A DNA stretch of 64,000 bases from Escherichia phage vB_EcoM_I14.1: the sequence record PP892526.1; one strand, 5' to 3'. Below, in pieces: positions 1 through 43,571 of the stretch; position 1 is the stretch's first letter; each line of letters opens with the position of its first letter. Position numbers and translations under genes: made by a program. The notes beneath the pieces are model-generated. The model did not search any database. It saw only the letters and a program-made list of their open reading frames with translations, and had not been told where the DNA came from.

Positions 1-29
1 GCCCCCTTAACATTTTCTTAACAATTTCT

Positions 30-580
30 TAACAACCCCTACATAGTTATGCTTGTTAGCAACTTGTTAGCCCCTTGTTAAATCTCTGTTAAAACCACGT
101 AAAAGCCTTGTAAGAGTCTTTAGCATAGCCTTTAAAGCCCCTGTAAAGCCCTATAAATAGCTTTCTGTATAGTTGGGGTGTAATTACTAGGGAGAGACTA
201 AAAAGAGCTTATAAGGAGCTATAGAAAGCTTTTAAGAGGGCTATTTAAAAGGTCACTAAGAAAGGAAAGGGAACGATAAGAAAAGAGATAGTGACCATGT
301 TAATAGCTTGTTAAAAAGATTAAACACTTGTTAGGAACTTGTTAATTATCTTAACAAAATAACTCTTTAAAATTAACTTGTTAGCTCTTGTTAGTCATCT
401 GTTAAGATTCTATAAAGACCATGTAGCAACTGTTAAGAAACTGTTACACCCTTGTTAGTTCTGTTAAGAATCTGTTAAGACCTCTGAAGAGATGTTAAGA
501 GGTTGTAAGAACTGTTAAGAGATTGTTAAGGATATTTTAAAATTCTGCAAAGGGGATGTTACAGGGATGTTAAGGGCTAC
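30..580 (+). repeat. array of about 30 same-orientation short direct repeats, consensus YTTGTTAR / CTGTTAAGA, mostly 10-13 bp apart
   Basis: Repeated cttgttag / ctgttaaga / gatgttaaga read directly, e.g. 62-70, 376-385, 429-438, 460-480, 491-531; no ORF in region. Confidence 0.85.
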
Positions 581-719
581 CAAGCAGATATACATCCTAA
601 TCAGATATTTTTGAGTTCCTTCAAAGACCCTAAAAAATGACTTGATAGTCCTATTTTATAAAAATTTTAAAATTCTGAATAATTACCTAAACAGTCTTCT
701 AAAAATACAGGCATAAACA

Positions 720-1080
720 GGCTTATAAGATACCTTGTTAGTACCGTGTTAGTCCTTGTGAGATAAGGTCTGTAAAGATATTCCTGTTAAGTTTGTTAAA
801 ACAGTCTATATAGAGGCTTAGTAATACCTAGTGAACACCTATAGAGGGTAACATAGCTGACATAGAGATTAAGAGGTGTATAGGGGCTTCTAAGAGGGTG
901 TAGAGGTGTGGTTAAGGTGATTGTATAGGTTGCTAAGAAGGCTTGTTAGAGGGCTTGTTAGAGGGCTATTTAGAAGGTTTATACAGAGTGACTATTAAGA
1001 CCACTAGATAGATACTAAGATACTATATAGTACTATATAACTATATAGAGAGTAAGATTAAGGAGGTTGTTAAGAAGGGT
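720..1080 (+). repeat. second degenerate repeat zone (ccttgttag, taagagg, gcttgttagaggg tandem copy, tatag/ctata tracts)
   Basis: Direct reading; gcttgttagagggcttgttagagggct at 941-967. Confidence 0.6.
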
Positions 1081-1166
1081 AGATATTTTATTCACATATG
1101 ATGGTGACCCAGAGGTTGGGACAACCGATGAAATTTTATAAAAATTATAAATTTCGTAAAATTTAC

Positions 1167-1194
1167 TCAATAAAAAGCCCCCAATTAAGGAGGC
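1167..1194 (-). terminator. rho-independent terminator ending the leftward operon
   Basis: Minus-strand hairpin AGCCTCC-ttaatt-GGGGGCT followed by T-run, just downstream of the 1207 stop. Confidence 0.7.
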
Positions 1195-1206
1195 TCTTAA
1201 GATATT

Positions 1207-1755
1207 TTAAATCAGTGTTTCCAGAACTGTCTTCAGTGATGACTTGGTTGTCTGATAAAAATGAGTAAATCCATTGTTGTTATCGAACACCTGCATCATG
1301 ATATCATCTCCCTTGATTGGGTACACTCGGATATCATAGTGAAACCCATTAAAGACAGCAGAACCATTACAGAATGAACTAAAGTCATCTACTGAGATAT
1401 ACTCTTCATGTCCTGTGATTTTTATACAAACACCTTTACTCGGTCTCTTAGGATTGATATCTTCCATCACAGACATACTTTGTCCACCAAGAGATACCAT
1501 AGTGACCACTTTACGGTTCTTCTGTCTAAAGTACATCTTGACTTTCTGTAAAGTGTCTTCATAGAACGGATAAGACTTTTCTACAAAGATTCCTTCTAAC
1601 GGCTCTTTACCATTTTCAACTTCTCTGTAATGCCGTACTGCAAAGATAATTTGTTGGAACCAGTCAAAATTTTCTTCGGAGAGTCCTTCCCGAATATCAT
1701 TCCAGTCAAGGACTAGGTAGTTACCTTCAACTTCTTTTAAGTTATCTTTTTCCAT
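1207..1755 (-). CDS. hypothetical protein
   Basis: ORF 1207..1800; first codon is TTG, first ATG at 1755, which also removes the overlap with the upstream gene. Confidence 0.55.
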   Translation of the reverse strand: MEKDNLKEVEGNYLVLDWNDIREGLSEENFDWFQQIIFAVRHYREVENGKEPLEGIFVEKSYPFYEDTLQKVKMYFRQKNRKVVTMVSLGGQSMSVMEDINPKRPSKGVCIKITGHEEYISVDDFSSFCNGSAVFNGFHYDIRVYPIKGDDIMMQVFDNNNGFTHFYQTTKSSLKTVLETLI

Positions 1756-1768
1756 ATCTATCACACCA

Positions 1769-2233
1769 TTATCGTAAAACTTGGTAAGCTGGTACTGCAA
1801 ACTTGTTGCTATTGTTCCTAATAAGGTCTTCTTCTGTTACTAAGAATGTAATCCCACATAAGTGCGTATAGTGGCTGTCATACTCGAATATTTTAAGTAA
1901 GTATTTACCATCATGATAAACAGATTCTACTACACCTTTTGCAACAATCTTTCCAGTCTTGAAGTCTTTAAGAGGGTATGTATTACCAACTTTAGGGACT
2001 GTTTTCACTTCAGGTTCTTTTAGCTTCTCACCAGCTTCTACATCACCTAGTAAGTGAGAACTTTCAAATGCTACATATTGCATGTAAACTTCTGAGCATT
2101 CCCAGATAAAACAGTGTACAAGAACCTTAGCAGCATGTCTTGAGCAATTCAGCTTATCACAAATCTCTTTGTACATTTCGTCTTTAGATGAGTTGTCAAG
2201 CATTGCTTTTCGAACGACTTCTTTAATTTTCAT
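1769..2233 (-). CDS. hypothetical protein
   Basis: 154-aa ORF, ATG with GGAGAG upstream, same-strand operon. Confidence 0.6.
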   Translation of the reverse strand: MKIKEVVRKAMLDNSSKDEMYKEICDKLNCSRHAAKVLVHCFIWECSEVYMQYVAFESSHLLGDVEAGEKLKEPEVKTVPKVGNTYPLKDFKTGKIVAKGVVESVYHDGKYLLKIFEYDSHYTHLCGITFLVTEEDLIRNNSNKFAVPAYQVLR

Positions 2234-2651
2234 AAGCTCTCCGAATAACCCTATTAAGCATCTCTAAAGTCAGCTTTCCAGATTCTAAATGTGGCATAAT
2301 GAGCTTTAAAGCTTCTTCAACATCATGCACGACATCTATTATACCTTCTTCATAGGCTTCTACAAGGATATCTTTTACGTTTTGTGGGTTAACTTTTTGC
2401 GGTATCACTAGACGCATATCAAACTCATTTGCTTGAGGATGGTTCTTACCTTGCCAATAACCGTCTTTGTTAAAGCTGATGTAGTCACCGTGGTAAAAGT
2501 GTACACCATTAGCTTTAAACTTCTCCAGCACAAGGCATTGAATTGGGTATTGAGTATTCCACTCCCTGACTCCTATAACCTTCACTGTTGCGATGTACTC
2601 CTGTGTTTTTGCATCTATGATGTCAAGTTCTTGACCAGCTATGATTTGCAT
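2223..2651 (-). CDS. hypothetical protein
   Basis: 142-aa ORF in operon context. Confidence 0.6.
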   Translation of the reverse strand: MQIIAGQELDIIDAKTQEYIATVKVIGVREWNTQYPIQCLVLEKFKANGVHFYHGDYISFNKDGYWQGKNHPQANEFDMRLVIPQKVNPQNVKDILVEAYEEGIIDVVHDVEEALKLIMPHLESGKLTLEMLNRVIRRAYEN

Positions 2652-2705
2652 ATTCGCTACCTTATAAGTTCCTACAAAGGGGCTATCAAGTAACCCCCTA
2701 AGTTA

Positions 2706-2930
2706 TTACTCAGACTCTTCAGTCTTCTTATCAGATTTCTTACTAGTCTTCTTCTCAGCTTTCTGCTCAGGTTCCTTCTCAGAAGTTGCCTTGATAACCA
2801 TATCAAGAAGCTCTGATAAATCACTCTTCAGCAAAGTAACAGGCTGCTCATTGTAGAAGTTTTTGTCAAGATAAACTTTGAACTCTTCAATAGAAGGAAA
2901 TCCAAAAATTGGTACAGGTGTCTTAATCAT
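2706..2930 (-). CDS. hypothetical small protein with Lys/Glu-rich C-terminus
   Basis: 74-aa ORF. Confidence 0.5.
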   Translation of the reverse strand: MIKTPVPIFGFPSIEEFKVYLDKNFYNEQPVTLLKSDLSELLDMVIKATSEKEPEQKAEKKTSKKSDKKTEESE

Positions 2931-3006
2931 TACTTAGTTTCTCCATAAGCATCTTTCAAGATTGCCTTGTTAATCATTTCAGCGATTGCAAAACGAACAC
3001 ATACAG

Positions 3007-3510
3007 CTATAATTGTAGGTTGCATTCTTTACTTACCTCTTCAAGTTTAATCTCTGAGTCCTTAAGTCGTTTCTTATGAACTCTGAATCTCATTAGTGCG
3101 ATGATGATACCAACTAAAGGAACAGCATACAAGTACCAAACATCATATACTTTTGCGGTAACCTGTGTAATGGTCAAATCTTGAGCTATGGAACTGATTG
3201 CTGATACTGCCAGCAATGTTGCTAAGAAAAATGCCAGTACCATTACCGTACTTAAACAACCTCTGGCATGGTGTTCATGCTTAATGCACTTATTCTTTTC
3301 GTCAACAACCCTGTTATAGTCGTTTGTAAAGTCTCTGTAGAAAGCTTTCAAGTATTCTTTATTGTAGCCTTCAAAGCAACCTGTACCGTACCAATAATCA
3401 CCACCAAAATGTGCTATGATACCAGTGTCCCCATTCGGTTTAGTTACTCTCAAAGAGGTGTGATGACGAGTGTCTTGATAGTCTATTTTGTATCTTTCTT
3501 CGTAAATCAT
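3007..3510 (-). CDS. hypothetical membrane protein (two C-terminal hydrophobic helices)
   Basis: ORF 3007..3540; ATG at 3510 forms ATGA overlap with upstream stop; hydrophobic segments LAFFLATLLAVSAI and YAVPLVGIIIALM. Confidence 0.55.
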   Translation of the reverse strand: MIYEERYKIDYQDTRHHTSLRVTKPNGDTGIIAHFGGDYWYGTGCFEGYNKEYLKAFYRDFTNDYNRVVDEKNKCIKHEHHARGCLSTVMVLAFFLATLLAVSAISSIAQDLTITQVTAKVYDVWYLYAVPLVGIIIALMRFRVHKKRLKDSEIKLEEVSKECNLQL

Positions 3511-3725
3511 TTTCCAATCCCTCTCAATCGTTTGTTCCACTCAAGGTCAACAAGTCTTTGTAGGACTTTCCCTCTAGGTGCTACACCTCTTAAATCTGCA
3601 TCGTAACAATGGTAAAAGTCACCTTCAGCGTGTCTACCATAGCATTTTCTGATATTCTGACTCCTACGATACTGCTCTAACAGGGACAGTTTGTAGTAAT
3701 CTTCAACTGTAGTTAGTTTTTTCAT
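3507..3725 (-). CDS. hypothetical protein
   Basis: 72-aa ORF. Confidence 0.5.
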   Translation of the reverse strand: MKKLTTVEDYYKLSLLEQYRRSQNIRKCYGRHAEGDFYHCYDADLRGVAPRGKVLQRLVDLEWNKRLRGIGK

Positions 3726-3808
3726 TCTTTCACCACGAATCCTTTTAACAAACTAAAAAGGGAACTACCTCTCGATAGCTCCCATCATAGTTAACATTAT
3801 ATATTCGG

Positions 3809-4390
3809 TCAAGAGTATTTTTTAGGCAGTAATGCACTGCGCTTGTTACTCTCTTCACTCAATAGTGCGATAAATTCATCACCTTTCCCTTTCCACGGAC
3901 TGAATGTAGGGATGTGCTCTCGGATAGCCTCAATCACTGTTTTCAGGGCGTTGTTCTTTAACCACCAATCAGACACTGCCGAAGCTACAATGTAGTAAGC
4001 ACCATCATCTGTGAAGATTGGCTCAGAGATACATGGTGAAATCATAGTGGTAATGATAGAACCATTATTCATGTAGTATGTTCTTTTTTCAACCTTGTCA
4101 AGCAGTTTATGAAGGTCTGCAAAGAGACTTACCACCTCTTTATGGTCAATATCTTTTTCAAGATTTGCTCTATATTTTAATAGTGCAGCATCAACCTCTT
4201 TATCATTGAATTTGAAGTATTGGACTTCTTCATTCACACATACACTGATGTTGTTGGTGTTTATCGTCAATTTGCACAGTTTGACTGGAGAGTTAATGCT
4301 GGTCTGAAAAAGTGCTACACAGCCTTCTACATTCCCGAAATGTTTGACTAATGTAACTTCTGGTTGGATGTGCTCATGTTCTTCTGACAT
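3809..4390 (-). CDS. hypothetical protein
   Basis: 193-aa ORF. Confidence 0.6.
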   Translation of the reverse strand: MSEEHEHIQPEVTLVKHFGNVEGCVALFQTSINSPVKLCKLTINTNNISVCVNEEVQYFKFNDKEVDAALLKYRANLEKDIDHKEVVSLFADLHKLLDKVEKRTYYMNNGSIITTMISPCISEPIFTDDGAYYIVASAVSDWWLKNNALKTVIEAIREHIPTFSPWKGKGDEFIALLSEESNKRSALLPKKYS

Positions 4391-4737
4391 TATAGTTTCC
4401 TCATTAAATACTTTTTAAGTTGTGTGTTAGGTTTCTCAAAAACTTCTATAGAAGATATCTTGACAGATTCACCACGCATACCAGTGTGTTTGAAAATATA
4501 GTACTCCAACATACCTATGTATTTTGCTGGTAAGTCATACTTGACGTACACTGTTACAGAATCTTCAAATTCAACAACCTTTGTACCATCTTTGTAGTTA
4601 AACTCTTTAGGATGGTTGTAATTGTCGATGTCGTACATTAAAAAGAGTCTTTTCCGTTGCATGTCAAGCTTATTGGTTAAAGACTCTTTGATATCTGAGA
4701 AGTTTTTGTACACTGTGACATGGAGCTTACTCATCAT
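4390..4737 (-). CDS. hypothetical protein
   Basis: 115-aa ORF, start/stop coupled to neighbours. Confidence 0.6.
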   Translation of the reverse strand: MMSKLHVTVYKNFSDIKESLTNKLDMQRKRLFLMYDIDNYNHPKEFNYKDGTKVVEFEDSVTVYVKYDLPAKYIGMLEYYIFKHTGMRGESVKISSIEVFEKPNTQLKKYLMRKL

Positions 4738-5020
4738 TAAACTCTCTGACGAAGAAATAGTTGACTTTATTATTACCTACCATAAGGTCAAAGCAGGTAT
4801 TCTCAAAAGGTTTGTTGTAGGCATCATATGAAGTGTACGTATCAGCTACTTGTTTAGTATTGAGCTTTTTACTTGATGGATTTAAGAGGCCACCATACAG
4901 TTTCTTGATAGCCTCTTCTACAACAGACCAGATAATTTCGTCGGTAATTTCTTCGTACAGGTCAAGTTCACGCTCTAGTGAGAAGTCACAAATAGGGAAG
5001 ATAACCTGTACTTTGCTCAT
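4727..5020 (-). CDS. hypothetical protein
   Basis: 97-aa ORF. Confidence 0.55.
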   Translation of the reverse strand: MSKVQVIFPICDFSLERELDLYEEITDEIIWSVVEEAIKKLYGGLLNPSSKKLNTKQVADTYTSYDAYNKPFENTCFDLMVGNNKVNYFFVREFNDE

Positions 5021-5415
5021 TAACGAATAACCTGTGTGACTTGAATTGCTTCAGTTACGGACAAATCACCAACTTTCTCTTCTTTGATGAAAGTAAAGGT
5101 GAGTTCAACAGGTTCTTGCTCTTCTTGCTCAACTGGAATACCGTTAAGCTCATCAAAGATTGATTGGGTAGTCCAGTCTTCTCCACCATCTGGATAATGG
5201 ATGGCATAAAGAGGAAACTCTAAATTATACCAAGCAAAAACAGGACAACCATCTGCATCATCTCGGCATCTGTGGAGGTACGTATTTGTACCTTCAAAAT
5301 GCAAATGAAGATTGCCATTCTTCTCAAATAGAAGAGCATCTCGCAGGTCTAGTTCCTCATTTTCGCTGTAACGACTGACATCAACTTTAACGTGGATATG
5401 ACTGTTATTATTCAT
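5020..5415 (-). CDS. hypothetical protein
   Basis: 131-aa ORF. Confidence 0.6.
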   Translation of the reverse strand: MNNNSHIHVKVDVSRYSENEELDLRDALLFEKNGNLHLHFEGTNTYLHRCRDDADGCPVFAWYNLEFPLYAIHYPDGGEDWTTQSIFDELNGIPVEQEEQEPVELTFTFIKEEKVGDLSVTEAIQVTQVIR

Positions 5416-5806
5416 AAAAACCTCTCTCTGCTTGTTCGATTTTTGCTCTTAAAGTTTCGCAATGCTGTAAATGGTAGTTAGCTTCTTGTTCATGTGTTGC
5501 TAACTGCCTTTCAAGAACAGTTTTATAGTAACCTGCAAGTTGCTCTTTTGTCAATGGGTGCTCTGAAATAATATCAAGTCCACTTTCACCAAGAGGATTG
5601 AATTGTCCATGCTCATTGACATTGTAAGTCTCAAACTTGAACATACCATTGTTCACAGACTCAATAGGTGACAGTTCAACAAGCTCTACAGTAAACCGTG
5701 TATACACCTTGTCGCCTCTTGAAACTACATTGTTTCCGACAATGCGTACAAGCGAACCATTACGAGTATACTTAAAAGTCCCAAAGTCACTGGCCCAAAG
5801 CTTCAT
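5408..5806 (-). CDS. hypothetical protein
   Basis: 132-aa ORF. Confidence 0.6.
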   Translation of the reverse strand: MKLWASDFGTFKYTRNGSLVRIVGNNVVSRGDKVYTRFTVELVELSPIESVNNGMFKFETYNVNEHGQFNPLGESGLDIISEHPLTKEQLAGYYKTVLERQLATHEQEANYHLQHCETLRAKIEQAERGFYE

Positions 5807-5820
5807 AGTTTTCTCCTTAG

Positions 5821-5847
5821 AAAATAAAAAAGGCTCCCGAAGGAGCC
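5821..5847 (-). terminator. rho-independent terminator after endolysin gene
   Basis: GGCTCC-ttcg-GGAGCC hairpin plus T-run on minus strand. Confidence 0.75.
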
Positions 5848-5857
5848 TATGAAGATA

Positions 5858-6322
5858 TTACTTTGGATATATACTGTCAAGATAAATGTCAGCTTCCATT
5901 CTACGTCTGTTTTTCAAGCCGTTTGAAGTGACCTTCTTACCTTTGACTGTAATCTTGTTCCACCACTGCATAGCTTCTGCACAACCTACCTTATTACCAG
6001 CATTGTGGCGCTTGATAAATGTAGAATCCTGCATAGCTGTGATACCGATGTTGTATGTTTCACTTACAAGTGCATCGAACTCATTCTGAGAAGTTGTAAC
6101 CTTGATAGCTTTGTTCACTGCTGCAACAAACTTTTCAACATCTGCGAGAAGATACTGTTCAGCTTGTTCAGCCGTGATTTTCATACCCATCTTAACAGGT
6201 TTACCAGAAATACGGATTGTACCATACCCAATTGTTGGGATTCCGGCAGAGTCTTCGTAAGCCTCTAACTTCAGACCTTCAAAGAACTTAATAGCCTCTA
6301 AACCTTTTCTTGAGAGTTGCAT
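5858..6322 (-). CDS. endolysin, T4-type lysozyme (glycoside hydrolase family 24)
   Basis: N-terminal motif EGLKLEAYEDSAGIPTIGYGT (catalytic Glu/Asp/Thr pattern of phage lysozymes), 154 aa. Confidence 0.85.
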   Translation of the reverse strand: MQLSRKGLEAIKFFEGLKLEAYEDSAGIPTIGYGTIRISGKPVKMGMKITAEQAEQYLLADVEKFVAAVNKAIKVTTSQNEFDALVSETYNIGITAMQDSTFIKRHNAGNKVGCAEAMQWWNKITVKGKKVTSNGLKNRRRMEADIYLDSIYPK

Positions 6323-16741: not shown

Positions 16742-16942
16742 ATGAGTGAGACCGTTTACAAAGAACTTTATGAAGCTAATAAAAAGCTAGAATTTATGCA
16801 GAACACTATCATGGCAATTGCAGATAGATTATCTGTAGCAACAGGTATTGATATCAAAGAAGCCTCTATGGATGCACTTCTTGATGCTGTTGATGCAAAG
16901 TTCGAAGTTAAGAAAGAAGAGACTGCTACAGACTCTGAATAA
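16742..16942 (+). CDS. hypothetical small protein upstream of terminase
   Basis: 66-aa ORF with GGAG RBS. Confidence 0.55.
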   Translation: MSETVYKELYEANKKLEFMQNTIMAIADRLSVATGIDIKEASMDALLDAVDAKFEVKKEETATDSE

Positions 16943-16963: not shown

Positions 16964-18565
16964 ATGGACTTAAATGCTGTTAAGCAGAAGCGAGTGGAAG
17001 ATGTTAGGAAAGTCCTAGCTGGAGAGTTGGGGCTTTCTGATGAAGTAAAAGAAATTATCAAATCATTCGGTAAAGACCCCTCTAAATTCCTTCCAACTCA
17101 AATTCTGACTTTATTAAGATACACACCAGACCAAGTTAGACTTATCTTCAAATTGATGACTGATAAGAACTATGTAGCCCCTCAGCCGGGTTCTCAAGAG
17201 GTGTTTTTAAATACTAATGCTGACTTGGTTTTATATGGTGGTGCTGCTGGTGCTGGTAAAACTGCTGCATTGTTAATGGACTCTTTAAGGTTTATTGAAG
17301 ACCCTAACTATAATGCTGTATATTTCCGTCGAAATACAACACAGTTACAAGGTGGTTTATGGCCTGCTGCAAAGAAACTATTTGGTAAGTTTGGTGGGGT
17401 TCCTCACGAGCAGAAGATGACTATCACATTCCCTTCTGGGGCAACTATCAAGTTCACCTACCTAGAACTTGAAAAGCACGCTGAAGGTCATCAGGGTATT
17501 GAATACTCAGCTATCTACTTTGACGAAGGCACACACTTCTCTGCTTCACAGATTTCATACCTACAGACCCGTCTGCGTTCTGGCGCTGAAGGTGACTCAT
17601 ACATGAAGATTTCTATGAACCCAGATAGAGACCACTTCATTTATGATTGGGTAGAACCCTTCTTAGATGAAGAAGGTTACCCAGACCCTGAGAAGTGCGG
17701 TCGTATTCGTTGGTATGTTATGAATGATGGTGTGATGGTTTCTGATTGGGAAAGAGACAAGATTCTTGAAATGTTCCCTCTTGAGATTCCTCAGACATAC
17801 ACCTTCATCTCTGGTACGATTGATGATAACCCAATTCTTGACTTCTTAGAACCTAAATATCGTGGTAAGTTGGAAAACAACACACCTGTAAACGTTGCAA
17901 GACTTCGTTTCGGTAACTGGAAGGCTCGTGCAGAAGGTTCAAACTATTGGCAAAGACAGTGGTGTGAGATTGTTGATTCACTCCCAGAAGATGTGTTTGA
18001 TGTCAGAGCATGGGACTTAGCAGCGACTTTACCATCTGAAATTAACCCTAACCCAGACTGGACAGCGGGTGTTAAGATGGGTAAATCTAAAAAAGACGGT
18101 TGCTATTATATCATTGATGTAGTAAGATTTAGAGATAGACCCTCTGGAGTCGAAACACAAATTAATTTGACTGCTGAAAGTGACGGTAAGCGAACTGGTA
18201 TTTTTATCCCTCAAGACCCAGGCGCTGCTGGTAAATCCTATGCAACATCCCTCATCAGGAAACTTGCCGAGAAAGGTTATCGCGCAAGAGCTAAACCAAC
18301 AAATAAAGATAAAGTTACCCGCTTTGCGGGATTTTCTGCTGCTTCTGAAGCTGGACTTGTAAAAGTCTTGAGAGGTAGTTGGAACGAAGCTTACTTTCAA
18401 GAACTTGAAGGTTTTTGTGGTGATGGCAAAACTAAAGATGACCAAGTGGATGCTACCAGTGATGCTTTCAACAGTCTTAATGAAGTTAAATTATTCAAGC
18501 CACCATCAATGGGTGCTCACACAGACTTAGTGAGAGGAAACCCATATGAGGGGCTTAGACGTTGA
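16964..18565 (+). CDS. terminase large subunit
   Basis: Walker A LYGGAAGAGKTAA, ~530 aa, directly upstream of portal; ATG 16964 with GGAGG RBS. Confidence 0.85.
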   Translation: MDLNAVKQKRVEDVRKVLAGELGLSDEVKEIIKSFGKDPSKFLPTQILTLLRYTPDQVRLIFKLMTDKNYVAPQPGSQEVFLNTNADLVLYGGAAGAGKTAALLMDSLRFIEDPNYNAVYFRRNTTQLQGGLWPAAKKLFGKFGGVPHEQKMTITFPSGATIKFTYLELEKHAEGHQGIEYSAIYFDEGTHFSASQISYLQTRLRSGAEGDSYMKISMNPDRDHFIYDWVEPFLDEEGYPDPEKCGRIRWYVMNDGVMVSDWERDKILEMFPLEIPQTYTFISGTIDDNPILDFLEPKYRGKLENNTPVNVARLRFGNWKARAEGSNYWQRQWCEIVDSLPEDVFDVRAWDLAATLPSEINPNPDWTAGVKMGKSKKDGCYYIIDVVRFRDRPSGVETQINLTAESDGKRTGIFIPQDPGAAGKSYATSLIRKLAEKGYRARAKPTNKDKVTRFAGFSAASEAGLVKVLRGSWNEAYFQELEGFCGDGKTKDDQVDATSDAFNSLNEVKLFKPPSMGAHTDLVRGNPYEGLRR

Positions 18566-37458: not shown

Positions 37459-39996
37459 ATGGCAGATTACAAATTGAGTCAGTTAAACTCAATCGACACA
37501 ATTCGTTCAGAAGACCTATTGCACATCAGAGTTAAGAAAAGACCTAAAATGTTGGGTGACGAAGACCGTAGAATGACCTATCAAGACTTCTTAGCATCTT
37601 TTAAACTTGAAAGATTTGTTCAGATTGCTGGTAGTACTATGACAGGTGACTTAGGGATTGTTAAGTTACTTTATGGTGGTAAGGCAGTATTTGACCCAAC
37701 AGGCTCTTCTGAGGTTACTATTGGGGATATTTTAAAGACTTTTAAAATTAATTCAAATGGGCTTAAACTCACTATTGCAGATGCCACAAGGTCGGCAACT
37801 GTTTATCATACTTTGAACAAACCAAGCCCTAATGAACTTGGCATGAGAACTAATGAAGAGAATGATGCAAGATATGCAAGGCTTGCTGTTACAAACACAT
37901 TCTCTGGAACTCAGAACATTCAAGGTGATGCTAACTTACTTCGCCTTAGAAACCGAAATGCAAACAATGCACAATACATTGAAGGTGTAAACCTAGATGG
38001 TTCAGCTAGATGGTGGGTTGGTATTGGTAGCAATGGTTCTGACGAAGTAAAACTGTACAATAACAAATACAACTCAGTCTTGACTGTTGCAAGTAATATC
38101 TCTGTTAATAAATCTTTAGCAATCACTGGACAAGTTCAACCTTCAGATTTCTCTAACTTAGATGCTAGATACTTCACTCAGACAGTTGCTAATCAGAGAT
38201 TTGCACAGTTAGCTGGCAATAATACTTTTACAGGTGCTAACACTTTCACTAGCCTTGTTGTTAAGAAGAATGCTAATGCTATTACTTTGCAGAATACTGA
38301 TACAAGTACAGCACTTTACATTCTCGGTAAGAAGTCTGATGGAACAAATAAATGGTATGTTGGTACAGATTCTGACGAGACACGTCTGAACATTTATAAC
38401 TACCTTACAGGTTCACAGGTTTCACTAGGTACTACTATTGGTATCAATAAGACTGTGCAAATCACTGGACAAGTTCAACCTTCGGATTGGGCTAATATCG
38501 ATTCTAGATATATTCCGGCAGCAACATTAAGTACGATTGCAAGAACTAATGCTGCTAATACATTCTCTGCACAACAGGTTATCAACGCTGATGGTGAAGC
38601 TCTTGCGTTAAAAGCAAAAACTGCAACGTCATTATTTATTAGAGGTAAGGATGTTGATGGAACCAGCAAGTGGTATGTTGGTAATGGTGATGCCAGTGAT
38701 ATCTTAAACCTGTATAACTACAAGACAGGTAAAGGGCTTAACATTGGTTCAGTATTTGAAATGAATGCAACTTTAGCAATCACTGGACAAGTTCAACCTT
38801 CTGATTGGGCTAATATTGATGCAAGATACTTTACGCAAAGTGCTAGTGATGGTAGATACCTGAGAGTCAGAAGTACTGGCTTCAATAATGGAAACGTTGA
38901 AAAGTGGGCTAAAATTGCTACTGTCGTTATGCCGCAATCCGCATCTACTGCGGTGATTGAAGTGTTTGGTGGGTCTGGTTTTAATGTTAACGCACCACAC
39001 CAAGCAGGTAAGTGTGAGATTATTTTACGAACATCAAACAATAACCCAAAGGGTTTAAATGTTGTAGCTTGGAGAACCGCAGAGAATACCATTGTCACAG
39101 ATATTGGTTATGTTAACACATCTGGCGACACTTATGATATTTACTGTAGGGTCGGTACGTACCAAAATGGTACAACATCAAGAGTTCAATCTTCTAGCAA
39201 TGCAAGTGTGCAGCTATTTGAAGTCCCACAAACGTTTGATGATGCCCCACAAGGTATTGTGAAGGGTACAATTGCAAAATACTACACAAGTTTGCAAAAG
39301 CCAACCCCTTCAGATATCGGTGCATATACTAAAGCTGAAACTGACCAGAAAATTGCAGAAGCAATCAGTGACTCTACAGACCTGAATAAAATCTATCCAG
39401 TCGGTATTGTGACGTGGTTTAACAGTAATGTTAACCCTAATACAGCACTTCCTGGTCTAACTTGGACGTACCTGAACAATGGTGTTGGCAGAACTATTAG
39501 AATTGCAGCAGCAAATGGCTCAGATGTTGCTACAACTGGTGGTTCAGACTCTGTAACGTTATCTGTTGGTAACTTACCTTCACACACGCATAGTTTCTCT
39601 GCTACCACTTCATCATTTGATTATGGTACTAAGACTTCTAGCACAACTGGTAACCATAACCACAACAGGGGGACTATGGAGATTACTGGTACAGTAGGTT
39701 ACTTCAGAAGTGATTCTAGCAGCTTCTACACAGCAAGTGGTGCATTCACACTTGGTAGTTCAACTGCTTCTAAAGGTTTTACTGGTTCTAACTTCACTTA
39801 TGGTATCCCTGCTAACTTCAATGCGTCAAGAACTTGGTCTGGTGTAACGAATACAACAGGTAACCACAGCCACACTGTTGGTATTGGTGCTCACAGCCAC
39901 ACAGTTAGCGGTAACACAGGTGGTACTGGTTCTGGTTCAGCATTTAGTGTTACTAACCAGTTCTACAAGTTAATGGCTTGGGTAAGAACTGCTTAA
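37459..39996 (+). CDS. long tail fibre protein with three internal ~110-aa repeats and HxH tip
   Basis: ATG 37459 with AAGAGGAAA RBS (track start 37390 overlaps previous gene); triplicated ITGQVQPSD(F/W)(S/A)N(L/I)D(A/S)RY; C-terminal HTHSFS, GNHNHN, GNHSHTVGIGAHSHTV. Confidence 0.8.
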   Translation: MADYKLSQLNSIDTIRSEDLLHIRVKKRPKMLGDEDRRMTYQDFLASFKLERFVQIAGSTMTGDLGIVKLLYGGKAVFDPTGSSEVTIGDILKTFKINSNGLKLTIADATRSATVYHTLNKPSPNELGMRTNEENDARYARLAVTNTFSGTQNIQGDANLLRLRNRNANNAQYIEGVNLDGSARWWVGIGSNGSDEVKLYNNKYNSVLTVASNISVNKSLAITGQVQPSDFSNLDARYFTQTVANQRFAQLAGNNTFTGANTFTSLVVKKNANAITLQNTDTSTALYILGKKSDGTNKWYVGTDSDETRLNIYNYLTGSQVSLGTTIGINKTVQITGQVQPSDWANIDSRYIPAATLSTIARTNAANTFSAQQVINADGEALALKAKTATSLFIRGKDVDGTSKWYVGNGDASDILNLYNYKTGKGLNIGSVFEMNATLAITGQVQPSDWANIDARYFTQSASDGRYLRVRSTGFNNGNVEKWAKIATVVMPQSASTAVIEVFGGSGFNVNAPHQAGKCEIILRTSNNNPKGLNVVAWRTAENTIVTDIGYVNTSGDTYDIYCRVGTYQNGTTSRVQSSSNASVQLFEVPQTFDDAPQGIVKGTIAKYYTSLQKPTPSDIGAYTKAETDQKIAEAISDSTDLNKIYPVGIVTWFNSNVNPNTALPGLTWTYLNNGVGRTIRIAAANGSDVATTGGSDSVTLSVGNLPSHTHSFSATTSSFDYGTKTSSTTGNHNHNRGTMEITGTVGYFRSDSSSFYTASGAFTLGSSTASKGFTGSNFTYGIPANFNASRTWSGVTNTTGNHSHTVGIGAHSHTVSGNTGGTGSGSAFSVTNQFYKLMAWVRTA

Positions 39997-40003
39997 TCAC
40001 TTG

Positions 40004-40032
40004 TTGACTGATTGTTAAGATGGTGTTAATAT
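40004..40032 (+). promoter_or_regulatory. sigma70-like promoter TTGACT-N17-TAATAT within a 10-bp inverted repeat
   Basis: Direct reading; inverted repeat AAGATGGTG..CACCATCTT. Confidence 0.5.
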
Positions 40033-40075
40033 TCTTTATGGGTATTCTCACCATCTTGGCTGATGAGGTGATTAA

Positions 40076-43271: not shown

Positions 43272-43571
43272 TTAATCTGCCAACCTTAAATTAAAATTAA
43301 CACCAAATTTTTCACATACTTCCAACATAAACTTAAGAGAAACATTACCAGTGAGATTGATTATGTTGGATACACGAGACTGAGAGATACCACAAATTTT
43401 AGCAACTTGCTCTTGAGAAAGGCCTCTGGATTTAATCTCTCTCTTAAAACGATGTGCAACGAAGTCTCTCATTTCGTCTACATCCATTGGACAAATATAA
43501 CTCTCCATTTCAGCCTCTCTGTCAGCCTCCCAATCATCTTGTGGAGCATAAGGGTCAAAAACCTCATTCAT
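43272..43571 (-). CDS. helix-turn-helix DNA-binding protein (XRE-like)
   Basis: LSQEQVAKICGISQSRVSNI motif; ATG at 43571 removes overlap with upstream gene. Confidence 0.6.
   Translation of the reverse strand: MNEVFDPYAPQDDWEADREAEMESYICPMDVDEMRDFVAHRFKREIKSRGLSQEQVAKICGISQSRVSNIINLTGNVSLKFMLEVCEKFGVNFNLRLAD

Follow-up and report, generated by a model that had tools for sequence, protein, structure and literature searches.

A helically phased TGTTA array in the direct terminal repeat of a Felix-O1-like phage and its match to binding sites of the host regulator ArcA-P

The left end of a 64,000-nucleotide stretch of Escherichia phage vB_EcoM_I14.1 (PP892526.1), referred to here as the window, is crowded with short direct repeats built on the core TGTTA. 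The questions raised by this locus were which part of the phage genome the repeats occupy, whether they are under selection, and which protein they may bind. All coordinates are those of the 64-kb window, and scans of the genome were carried out on the linear record PP886228.1 (Escherichia phage vB_EcoM_D4, Felixounavirus, 89,439 bp). Window 1–1200 matched this record at 100% from record position 1, and no differences were found over window 1–6000. About 250 Felix-O1-like phages aligned to window 1–1200 at 75–95%. The repeats formed a helically phased array in a direct terminal repeat (DTR) that is identical at both genome ends, and the core, the flanks and the 11-bp direct-repeat spacing of this array equal the published element for ArcA-P, the phosphorylated form of the oxygen-sensing response regulator ArcA of the host.

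An earlier note on this stretch had described about 30 phased TGTTA-core repeats in 1–1100, and this description held, with 28 direct copies, three inverted copies at the left end and a period of 10.3–10.4 bp. The exact + strand copies started at 54, 65, 76, 87, 298, 309, 329, 340, 379, 389, 400, 431, 442, 453, 462, 473, 493, 513, 524, 557, 568, 736, 747, 785, 794, 944, 956, and 1068. Inverted copies (TAACA) were located at 8, 19, and 30, and one more was found at 352. Together with the inverted copies, the motif occurred at approximately 14 times the background rate, which was 1.8 per kb in the rest of the window. Within 1–581, 21 copies of TGTTA were observed, whereas 0.99 were expected (Poisson 6e-21). 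An unbiased scan of k-mers ranked TGTTA first among the 5-mers, and CTTGTTAG and TGTTAAGA led the 8-mers. Moreover, TGTTA-N6-TGTTA pairs numbered 15 in the window, whereas shuffles predicted 0.38, and 14 of the 15 were confined to 8–751. No other cluster of at least three TGTTA per 60 bp was found elsewhere in the whole 89-kb genome.

The phasing of the copies was evaluated by comparing the coherence of the TGTTA positions with that of 2000 random placements, none of which equalled the observed value. The best period, 10.3–10.4 bp, corresponds to one helical turn. Exactly 11 bp separated neighbouring copies in 12 cases, and the pairwise distances peaked at 11, 20, 31, 42, 51–53, 62, and 71–73 bp. 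Period-11 arrays were also reported by Tandem Repeats Finder (TRF) at 6–35, 52–80, 129–151, 428–530, 553–576, and 731–753. The phasing on one DNA face that the earlier note had proposed, and the cooperative protein binding that it had read from this phasing, are consistent with the period of 10.3–10.4 bp and with the better conservation of the cores than of the spacers.

The TGTTA copies were grouped at 54–113, 298–344, 379–572, 734–798, and 941–965, with a single copy at 1068. At the extreme left, three inverted repeat units (5–36, − strand), whose TAACA cores keep the 11-bp spacing, read TTGTTAAGAAATTGTTAAGAAAATGTTAAGG on the − strand; the GenBank record bumzen marks these three copies as a repeat_region, without explanation. 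Array A (52–113, + strand) consisted of six units in a strict 11-bp register, with starts at 53, 64, 75, 86, 97, and 108; the first four had an exact TGTTA, and the last two had CGTAA and TGTAA. It was continued in degenerate form over 118–260 (+ strand), first by CCTTTAAAGCC, CCTGTAAAGCC, and CTATAAATAGC units and then by GCT(T/A)TAAG(A/G)G units at 11–12 bp, and a period of 10–11 was reported by TRF at 129–157. Array B (297–348, + strand) contained the four copies at 298, 309, 329, and 340, and array C (377–577, + strand) contained 13 TGTTA, from 379 to 568, plus TGTAA at 504. Array D (734–800, + strand), with copies at 736, 747, 785, and 794, lay outside the DTR. Repeated octamers in one orientation from about 30 to 580 had been described previously. 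The repeats themselves were found there, but they formed clusters rather than a continuous run, 118–260 held only degenerate units, and the three leftmost copies were inverted.

The location of the array was defined by the ends of the genome. The final 581 bp of PP886228.1 repeated window 1–581 exactly, with the match ending at 582, and the records of relatives share the same start, as anticipated by the suggestion of a genome-terminal repeat zone. This segment is the DTR of a Felix-O1-like phage, with fixed, sequence-specific ends that are common to the relatives. The independent records of D4, Pr103Blw, HP1, and NBSal004 all began with the G of GCCCCCTTAAC. The annotated DTR of Pr103Blw (1–581, 581 bp) had the same first nucleotide as that of D4, the DTR of Citrobacter phage HP1 (Mooglevirus) was 570 bp long, and the annotated DTR of UAB_69 (618 bp) was shifted by 2 nt at each side. 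Kolesnikvirus records began at most 4 nt from the homologous position. A short DTR is already known for the genus Felixounavirus. The genome ends of D4 were called by the depositors with PhageTerm (PMC11737134), and those of Pr103Blw likewise came from PhageTerm. For UAB_Phi87, Bal31 digestion combined with run-off sequencing gave an experimentally mapped DTR of 608 bp (PMC4837284).

The boundaries of the DTR were examined in an alignment of the concatemer-junction region from 10 phages of three genera (Felixounavirus, Suspvirus, and Mooglevirus). The left boundary motif GCCCCCTTAACATTT (1–15, + strand) was almost invariant in these phages, and together with the preceding 2 nt of the concatemer it reads TAGCCCCCTTAACAT, which is the inverted counterpart of the right boundary. 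The right boundary motif GGGATGTTAAGGGCTACC (565–581, + strand) has the reverse complement GGTAGCCCTTAACAT, which mirrors the left boundary, and its GTTAAGGGCTACC was invariant in 10/10 phages. The sequence TAGCCC(CC)TTAACAT was common to both DTR ends on opposite strands; hence, the DTR is bounded by a short inverted motif. The outermost TGTTAAGGG copy points outward at each end, and the outermost TGTTA copies lie 7 bp from the left end and 10 bp from the right end. On the outside of the right boundary, the unique flank AAGCAGATATACATCC (582–600, + strand) was invariant in the 10 phages, and Erwinia phage M7 retained it as GTAGATATACA, immediately 3' of its own DTR. With the boundary marked by a slash, the left junction reads ...GTTACGTAAATGCTA/GCCCCCTTAACAT and the right junction reads ATGTTAAGGGCTACC/AAGCAGATATACA; the boundaries and their outside flanks were near-invariant. 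Before the left boundary in the concatemer (−43 to −1), AAGTTACGTAAA, which contains the palindrome TTACGTAA, occurred twice, 22 bp apart. The copy adjoining the boundary was kept in all relatives, and M7 has TTTACGCTA there. AAGTTACGTAAA outside the left boundary and AAGCAGATATACA outside the right boundary are possible determinants of the terminase cut sites.

The surroundings of the DTR were free of genes. The gene-free terminal region spanned approximately 1.56 kb (with one repeat copy counted), between a rightward and a leftward gene block that converge here. Both blocks end in an intrinsic terminator, and the pair brackets the region; the terminator closing the leftward block lies at 1178–1192 (− strand), and its partner lies on the + strand at record 88433–88450. 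No credible gene was found in 1–1100, in agreement with the non-coding character that had been ascribed to it.

Selective conservation was observed within the array. Core columns of the 10 aligned phages were 95.7% identical to D4, whereas spacer columns were 81.1% identical (Mann–Whitney p = 2e-10), and the cores of array C were kept in 5–9 of 9 relatives. Insertions and deletions in the array comprised whole units of 11–12 bp, and the copy number of TGTTA stayed at 19–23 in each of the ten phages. Furthermore, the array persisted across genera. Erwinia phage M7 (Kolesnikvirus), whose terminal region had <70% identity to that of D4 over only about 120 bp, carried an exact 444-bp DTR with 13 TGTTA and 7 TAACA, and TGTTA was again the top 5-mer. 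The left part of the M7 DTR was filled by inverted copies and the right part by direct copies, and both of its boundaries were homologous to those of D4. The comparison with the terminal regions of related phages, which had been put forward as a check, accordingly yielded comparable arrays in ten relatives and in M7. No TGTTA array was found in the equivalent convergent gap of the distant Pseudomonas relative PAK_P1, which has a similar genome layout. The conservation pattern and the persistence across genera speak for selection acting on both the cores and the phasing, and hence for protein binding.

The identity of the binding protein was explored through the match with known sites. A 5-bp core with an A-rich flank, repeated directly every 11 bp, is the signature of head-to-tail regulators of the OmpR/PhoB winged-helix family. 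The ArcA-P site is composed of 10-bp direct repeats ATGTTAAAAA with TGTTA as the most conserved core, spaced 11 bp centre-to-centre; at the majority of sites in the chromosome, three to five such repeats are found 11 or 22 bp apart (PMC4173790; PMC3798270). The binding of ArcA-P is cooperative and phosphorylation-dependent, and it bends or distorts the DNA (PMC4173790; PMC3798270). The phage array resembles the multi-repeat sites of ArcA (Park et al. 2013; Park and Kiley 2014) in its TGTTA core, in the T before and the A-rich sequence after the core, in the 11-bp direct repeats, in the extra repeats one or two turns off, in the TGTAA and TGTCA variants, and in scores that equal or exceed those of real sites. 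The sequence features of an ArcA box were all present, namely, TGTTA cores (28 + 3), 11-bp direct repeats with extra copies at 20–22 and 31–33, and scores of at least 9 bits. At the flanks, T was present at −1 in 15/28 copies and A at +1 in 16/28, as compared with 164/230 and 131/230 ArcA half-sites. Moreover, ArcA sites tolerate the variants seen in the degenerate copies, namely, TGTAA and CGTAA, as well as the TGTCA of a relative. The PhoP-like TGTTTA had 0–1 occurrences and the PhoB-like TGTCA had none.

An 18-bp ArcA-box matrix was rebuilt from 115 of the 128 published E. coli boxes (Table S3) and applied with a cut-off of 9 bits (Park et al.). The DTR contained 14 hits of at least 9 bits. 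Composition shuffles yielded 0.99 ± 1.0 hits (at most 6), and the rate in the genome body was 0.57 per kb per strand. The DTR is 0.65% of the genome, and 11 of the top 25 scores in the genome were found in it, including the top four. The two highest scores, 22.8 and 22.6 bits (− strand, 7–35, TTGTTAAGAAATTGTTAAGAAAATGTTAAGG), were above that of every E. coli training site (maximum 21.6). Each of the ten aligned phages had 13–19 matrix hits, and M7 had 19, the best of which scored 20.5 bits. The recorded hosts of the subfamily are all Enterobacterales, which carry ArcA, and the phage encodes an anaerobic ribonucleotide reductase. With the points against it that follow also weighed, the chance that ArcA-P binds the array is about even. 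A search of the literature found no report of the array, nor of ArcA at phage termini. In the Felix O1 genome paper, repeats were listed only if they were at least 24 bp long, and the PhageMaP study of felixounavirus Bas63 reported nothing on the terminal region. The description of the terminal array and its match to ArcA sites thus appear to be new here.

Several observations weigh against ArcA-P as the binder. The core was followed by G (TGTTAG) in 10/28 copies, whereas G occupies this position in only 7/230 ArcA half-sites; it was preceded by C in 8/28 copies as against 21/230 half-sites, and the spacers were richer in G+C than those of E. coli ArcA sites. A core of 5 bp can coincide by chance. 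Known ArcA sites have 2–5 repeats and overlap sigma-70 promoters, whereas the phage array has 21–24 repeats in 581 bp, lies in a DTR between converging terminators, and has no promoter or gene to regulate. A promoter scan of the region gave only weak promoter-like matches, which arose because TTAACA resembles the −35 hexamer. Overlap with a promoter is typical of repressor sites and is not needed for binding. Furthermore, Felix-O1-like phages are routinely grown in air, where ArcA-P is low; therefore, ArcA cannot be essential for them. Most of the phage proteins are ORFans, which leaves room for a binder encoded by the phage. When IMG/VR was scanned for runs of four TGTTA spaced by 11 bp, >120 loci were returned, most of which were exact 11-bp satellites in AT-rich contigs and nine of which belonged to Ounavirinae. 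A few unrelated viral contigs with no host assigned also carried phased TGTTA arrays with varied spacers, so that the scan does not discriminate.

With these points on both sides, the reading put forward tentatively, at somewhat less than an even chance, is that the array forms a cooperative ArcA-P platform on the genome ends and on the concatemer junction. It is with similar reserve that the DTRs of Ounavirinae are proposed to be the densest natural ArcA-P arrays known, with sites stronger than those of E. coli, and to use a redox regulator as a component of the ends. ArcA-P as the binder, its cooperativity, and the effect of binding are what we infer from the match. ArcA-P, which is abundant in the low-oxygen gut, would already be in the cell when the DNA enters. 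It would bind cooperatively on one face of the DNA, and a nucleoprotein filament would then be assembled at both genome ends and at all concatemer junctions, with the outermost, outward-facing sites 7–10 bp from the two conserved cut sites. Such a filament may play the part of an architectural cofactor supplied by the host, in the manner of IHF at lambda cosB. It could organise the junction for two symmetric, staggered terminase cuts that regenerate the DTR, could cover the free ends after injection, or could do both. The unique conserved flanks would supply the specificity of the cut sites and the array would supply the architecture, and the biology of the ends would thereby be tied to the redox state of the host. 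Such cuts would follow the scheme of staggered nicks and fill-in that has classically been proposed for T7, and a terminase recognition complex may include a host architectural protein, as with IHF at lambda cosB.

Static curvature was considered as another reason for the phasing. It was predicted with the Bolshoy/Trifonov wedge model, the parameters of which were approximate. Over the arrays, 20–50 degrees per 105 bp were predicted against a genome mean of 34.5 (approximate parameters), and static curvature of the array was rejected because this bending is ordinary. Predicted bend peaks of 75–95 degrees flanked both boundaries (−93 to −13 and 587–707) and reached at least the 95th–99th percentile of the genome with the same approximate parameters. 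The search of the region against Rfam gave only sub-threshold chance hits.

A protein of the phage itself, most plausibly an unrecognised small terminase or packaging-initiation factor, may bind the array instead, with the likeness to ArcA sites being coincidental or convergent; this is possible, though less probable than binding by ArcA-P. Its subunits, one per helical turn, would wrap the repeat and place the T4-type large terminase, which is encoded at 16964–18565, at both boundaries. The array does fill the DTR, its outermost copies are within the TAGCCC(CC)TTAACAT motif that adjoins both cut sites, and both motif and architecture follow the phage lineage across genera and are lacking in the Pseudomonas relative. 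Short repeated sites beside the cut are the rule in lambda cosB, SPP1 pacL/pacR, and P1 pac, and the array likewise places repeated sites beside the cut. The flank preferences CTTGTTAG and CTGTTAAGA also deviate from the ArcA optimum. However, no small terminase was annotated or recognisable in the genome, in which many ORFans remain, and no other candidate was found. Among 38 proteins scanned for DNA-binding domains with PHROGs and Pfam, the only one detected was an Xre-type helix-turn-helix protein of the replication module (window 43272–43571). A 66-aa open reading frame (ORF) directly upstream of the large terminase (16742–16942) is strongly acidic, with homologues only in close relatives. 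Moreover, a phage binder does not account for the match to ArcA sites in core, flanks, and spacing, nor for top sites that outscore all those of E. coli. The array could also consist of replication-origin iterons, to which a phage or host initiator would bind and melt the conserved AT-rich block at 650–686, a reading that is improbable. Phased direct repeats beside conserved AT-rich stretches are a classic origin layout, lambda ori and P4 ori/crr (with 8-bp iterons) have repeats beside AT-rich DNA, and ArcA-P itself is known to bind oriC. The region is, however, where two gene blocks converge between two terminators, and no initiator gene is adjacent; the genes on either side are ORFans and lack domains. 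The primase-helicase resembles T7 gp4, its only domains are Toprim and DnaB_C, and a domain for origin binding is lacking; furthermore, the exact coincidence of the array with the DTR and its boundaries is not required of an origin. Cumulative GC skew was maximal here, with minima at divergent points near 7–8.6 kb and 51 kb. As an origin marker, GC/AT skew was set aside as uninformative or mildly adverse to an origin, because it follows gene orientation and the test is weak where skew follows transcription.

Two further explanations were considered. In one, which is marginally less probable still than an origin, the array would act as a decoy at low oxygen. Hundreds of genomes with about 30 sites each would titrate ArcA-P, derepressing respiratory and tricarboxylic acid cycle genes or relieving ArcA control elsewhere. 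A density of sites and scores above those of any host site would suit this function, as would the anaerobic-growth genes carried by the phage. A decoy, however, needs neither the DTR location, the helical phasing, nor the outward-facing copies at the boundaries, and derepressing aerobic metabolism brings no clear benefit without oxygen. In the other, the array would be a satellite with no function that arose in the non-coding DNA of the genome ends, through slippage during replication or through unequal exchange. Relatives do differ by gains and losses of 11–12-bp units, and exact 11-bp TGTTA satellites exist in many AT-rich viral contigs. This origin is nevertheless very improbable: the cores are far better conserved than the spacers, the copy number is steady at 19–23 in ten phages, and the motif survives in the Erwinia phage genus despite spacers below 70% identity. 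The spacers also differ among themselves, which speaks against a young homogeneous satellite.

The array can be set beside several known systems. In T7, CCTAAAG arrays reportedly occur in and beside the 160-bp terminal repeat, and in the T7 sequence CTAAAG was found at 18, 42, 61, 176, 189, 214, 227, 240, 294, 307, and 333. Both phages have a non-permuted genome with a short exact DTR, within and beside which a motif of 7–8 bp recurs many times in one orientation. The T7 motif is unrelated, however; its spacing is mostly 13 bp instead of 10.4 bp, and its copies are mostly outside the repeat. We know of no match of the T7 arrays to a host regulator. The T7 heptamer arrays are the nearest analogue in layout only. 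At lambda cosB (gpNu1 R sites and IHF), SPP1 pacL/pacR, and the P1 pac hexamers, several short sites likewise flank the cut. Those systems have cohesive or headful ends, few sites, and a known small terminase, whereas an exact DTR with approximately two dozen sites is present here. At psi of pSC101, ArcA is reported to be an architectural accessory factor for Xer recombination, and ArcA-P reportedly binds at oriC. Both are cases of ArcA-P in DNA transactions besides transcription, but they involve one or few ArcA sites and are unconnected to phage ends. At parC of plasmid R1, ten 11-bp repeats are bound cooperatively by ParR, with one repeat per turn and a continuous filament on one face. ParR, in contrast, has a ribbon-helix-helix fold, another motif, and a partition function.

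The remainder of the terminal region was occupied mostly by other repeat families. In 582–1100, TAGAGG and CTATATAG repeats prevailed, together with seven TGTTA. The second zone of related repeats that had been described here was therefore sustained for the tandem copy of GCTTGTTAGAGGG at 941–965 and not in the main for its relationship to the array. The conserved AT-rich block at 650–686 (no strand assigned) contains the 14-mer ATTTTAAAATTCTG, which recurs at 534–547, and the top predicted curvature of the region was located in this block (approximate parameters). Units of GCTTCTAAGAGGG, the tandem GCTTGTTAGAGGG (941–953 and 953–965), and GCTATTTAGAAGG followed at 886–978 (+ strand) with a TRF period of 12, and these repeats were poorly kept among relatives. 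A TACTATATAG repeat family with a different motif was located at 1013–1050 (+ strand), and the last isolated unit, TTGTTAAGAA, at 1066–1076 (+ strand). A stretch at 13557–13582 had been named as related to the array. It contains two CTTGTT 13 bp apart and lacks the TGTTA core, by which it was ruled out as a member; such CTTGTT pairs occurred twice in the genome body against 0.17 expected. In the repeat-rich non-coding DNA, a 45-aa ORF, CDS0001, was present at 1033–1170 (− strand), with 1098–1268 on the + strand listed alongside. It is broken by a 26-bp deletion in Felix O1, UAB_69, VpaE1, and Pr103Blw; because of this deletion in relatives, it is probably spurious rather than a gene. Small palindromic insertions of two kinds were scattered in the non-coding terminal regions of relatives, and none was found in D4. 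One kind is ATGAGATAGGAATCTATCGAATCCTAT-like and occurs even within terminator loops, and the other, AATTGGTATTGTTACCAATCCC, is present in up to three copies in NBSal004. These insertions look like miniature mobile elements.

Some observations were made in other parts of the window and in other records. The only TGTTA-N6-TGTTA pair of the window outside the terminal region (40013–40028) lay in a block at 39995–40065, which also gave the best non-terminal ArcA-box score, 16.7 bits. In the gap that follows the tail-fibre gene, the pair coincides in part with a promoter-like site close to consensus (TTGACT-N17-TAATAT, preceded by TG). The block was near-invariant in Felixounavirus, Suspvirus, and Mooglevirus, with TGTCA in one unit in Sf13, and AAGATGGTG...CACCATCTT forms an inverted repeat in it. 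Either a promoter under ArcA control or an operator for some other protein could be located here. At about 11165–11185, near 11174, the window lacked 4 bp of PP886228.1 and had one mismatch to it, the record having GGTTCGACTCCTGC and the window GGTTTCCTGC. Because of this deletion, window coordinates 3' of about 11174 equal those of the record minus 4. The version in the record resembles a tRNA T-arm, between tRNA-Glu (11027) and tRNA-Asn (11275), and no tRNA was called there in the window by ARAGORN. The GenBank entry GU169904.1 ("Staphylococcus phage SA1", 147 kb) included a Felix-O1-type terminal region at 92% identity, so that the entry may be chimeric or contaminated.

Felix O1 and related phages are classic agents of phage diagnostics and therapy. 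The anatomy of their DTR is now defined: the flanks of the cut sites are conserved, the boundaries carry an inverted motif, and the array is phased and appears to be under selection. ArcA is a specific candidate for the binder of this array. If a phage protein binds it instead, the array would be a bait for the missing packaging-recognition protein. If ArcA-P binds, the oxygen supply and energy status of the host would influence the protection of the ends, the processing of concatemers, or packaging. For a virulent phage, such reliance on a host factor and such sensing of the environment would be of a new kind, and the role of ArcA would be extended beyond transcription. The array would then have to be retained when these genomes are engineered or rebooted. 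Furthermore, the infection of gut phages would be wired to oxygen, which would bear on phage therapy in the anaerobic gut.

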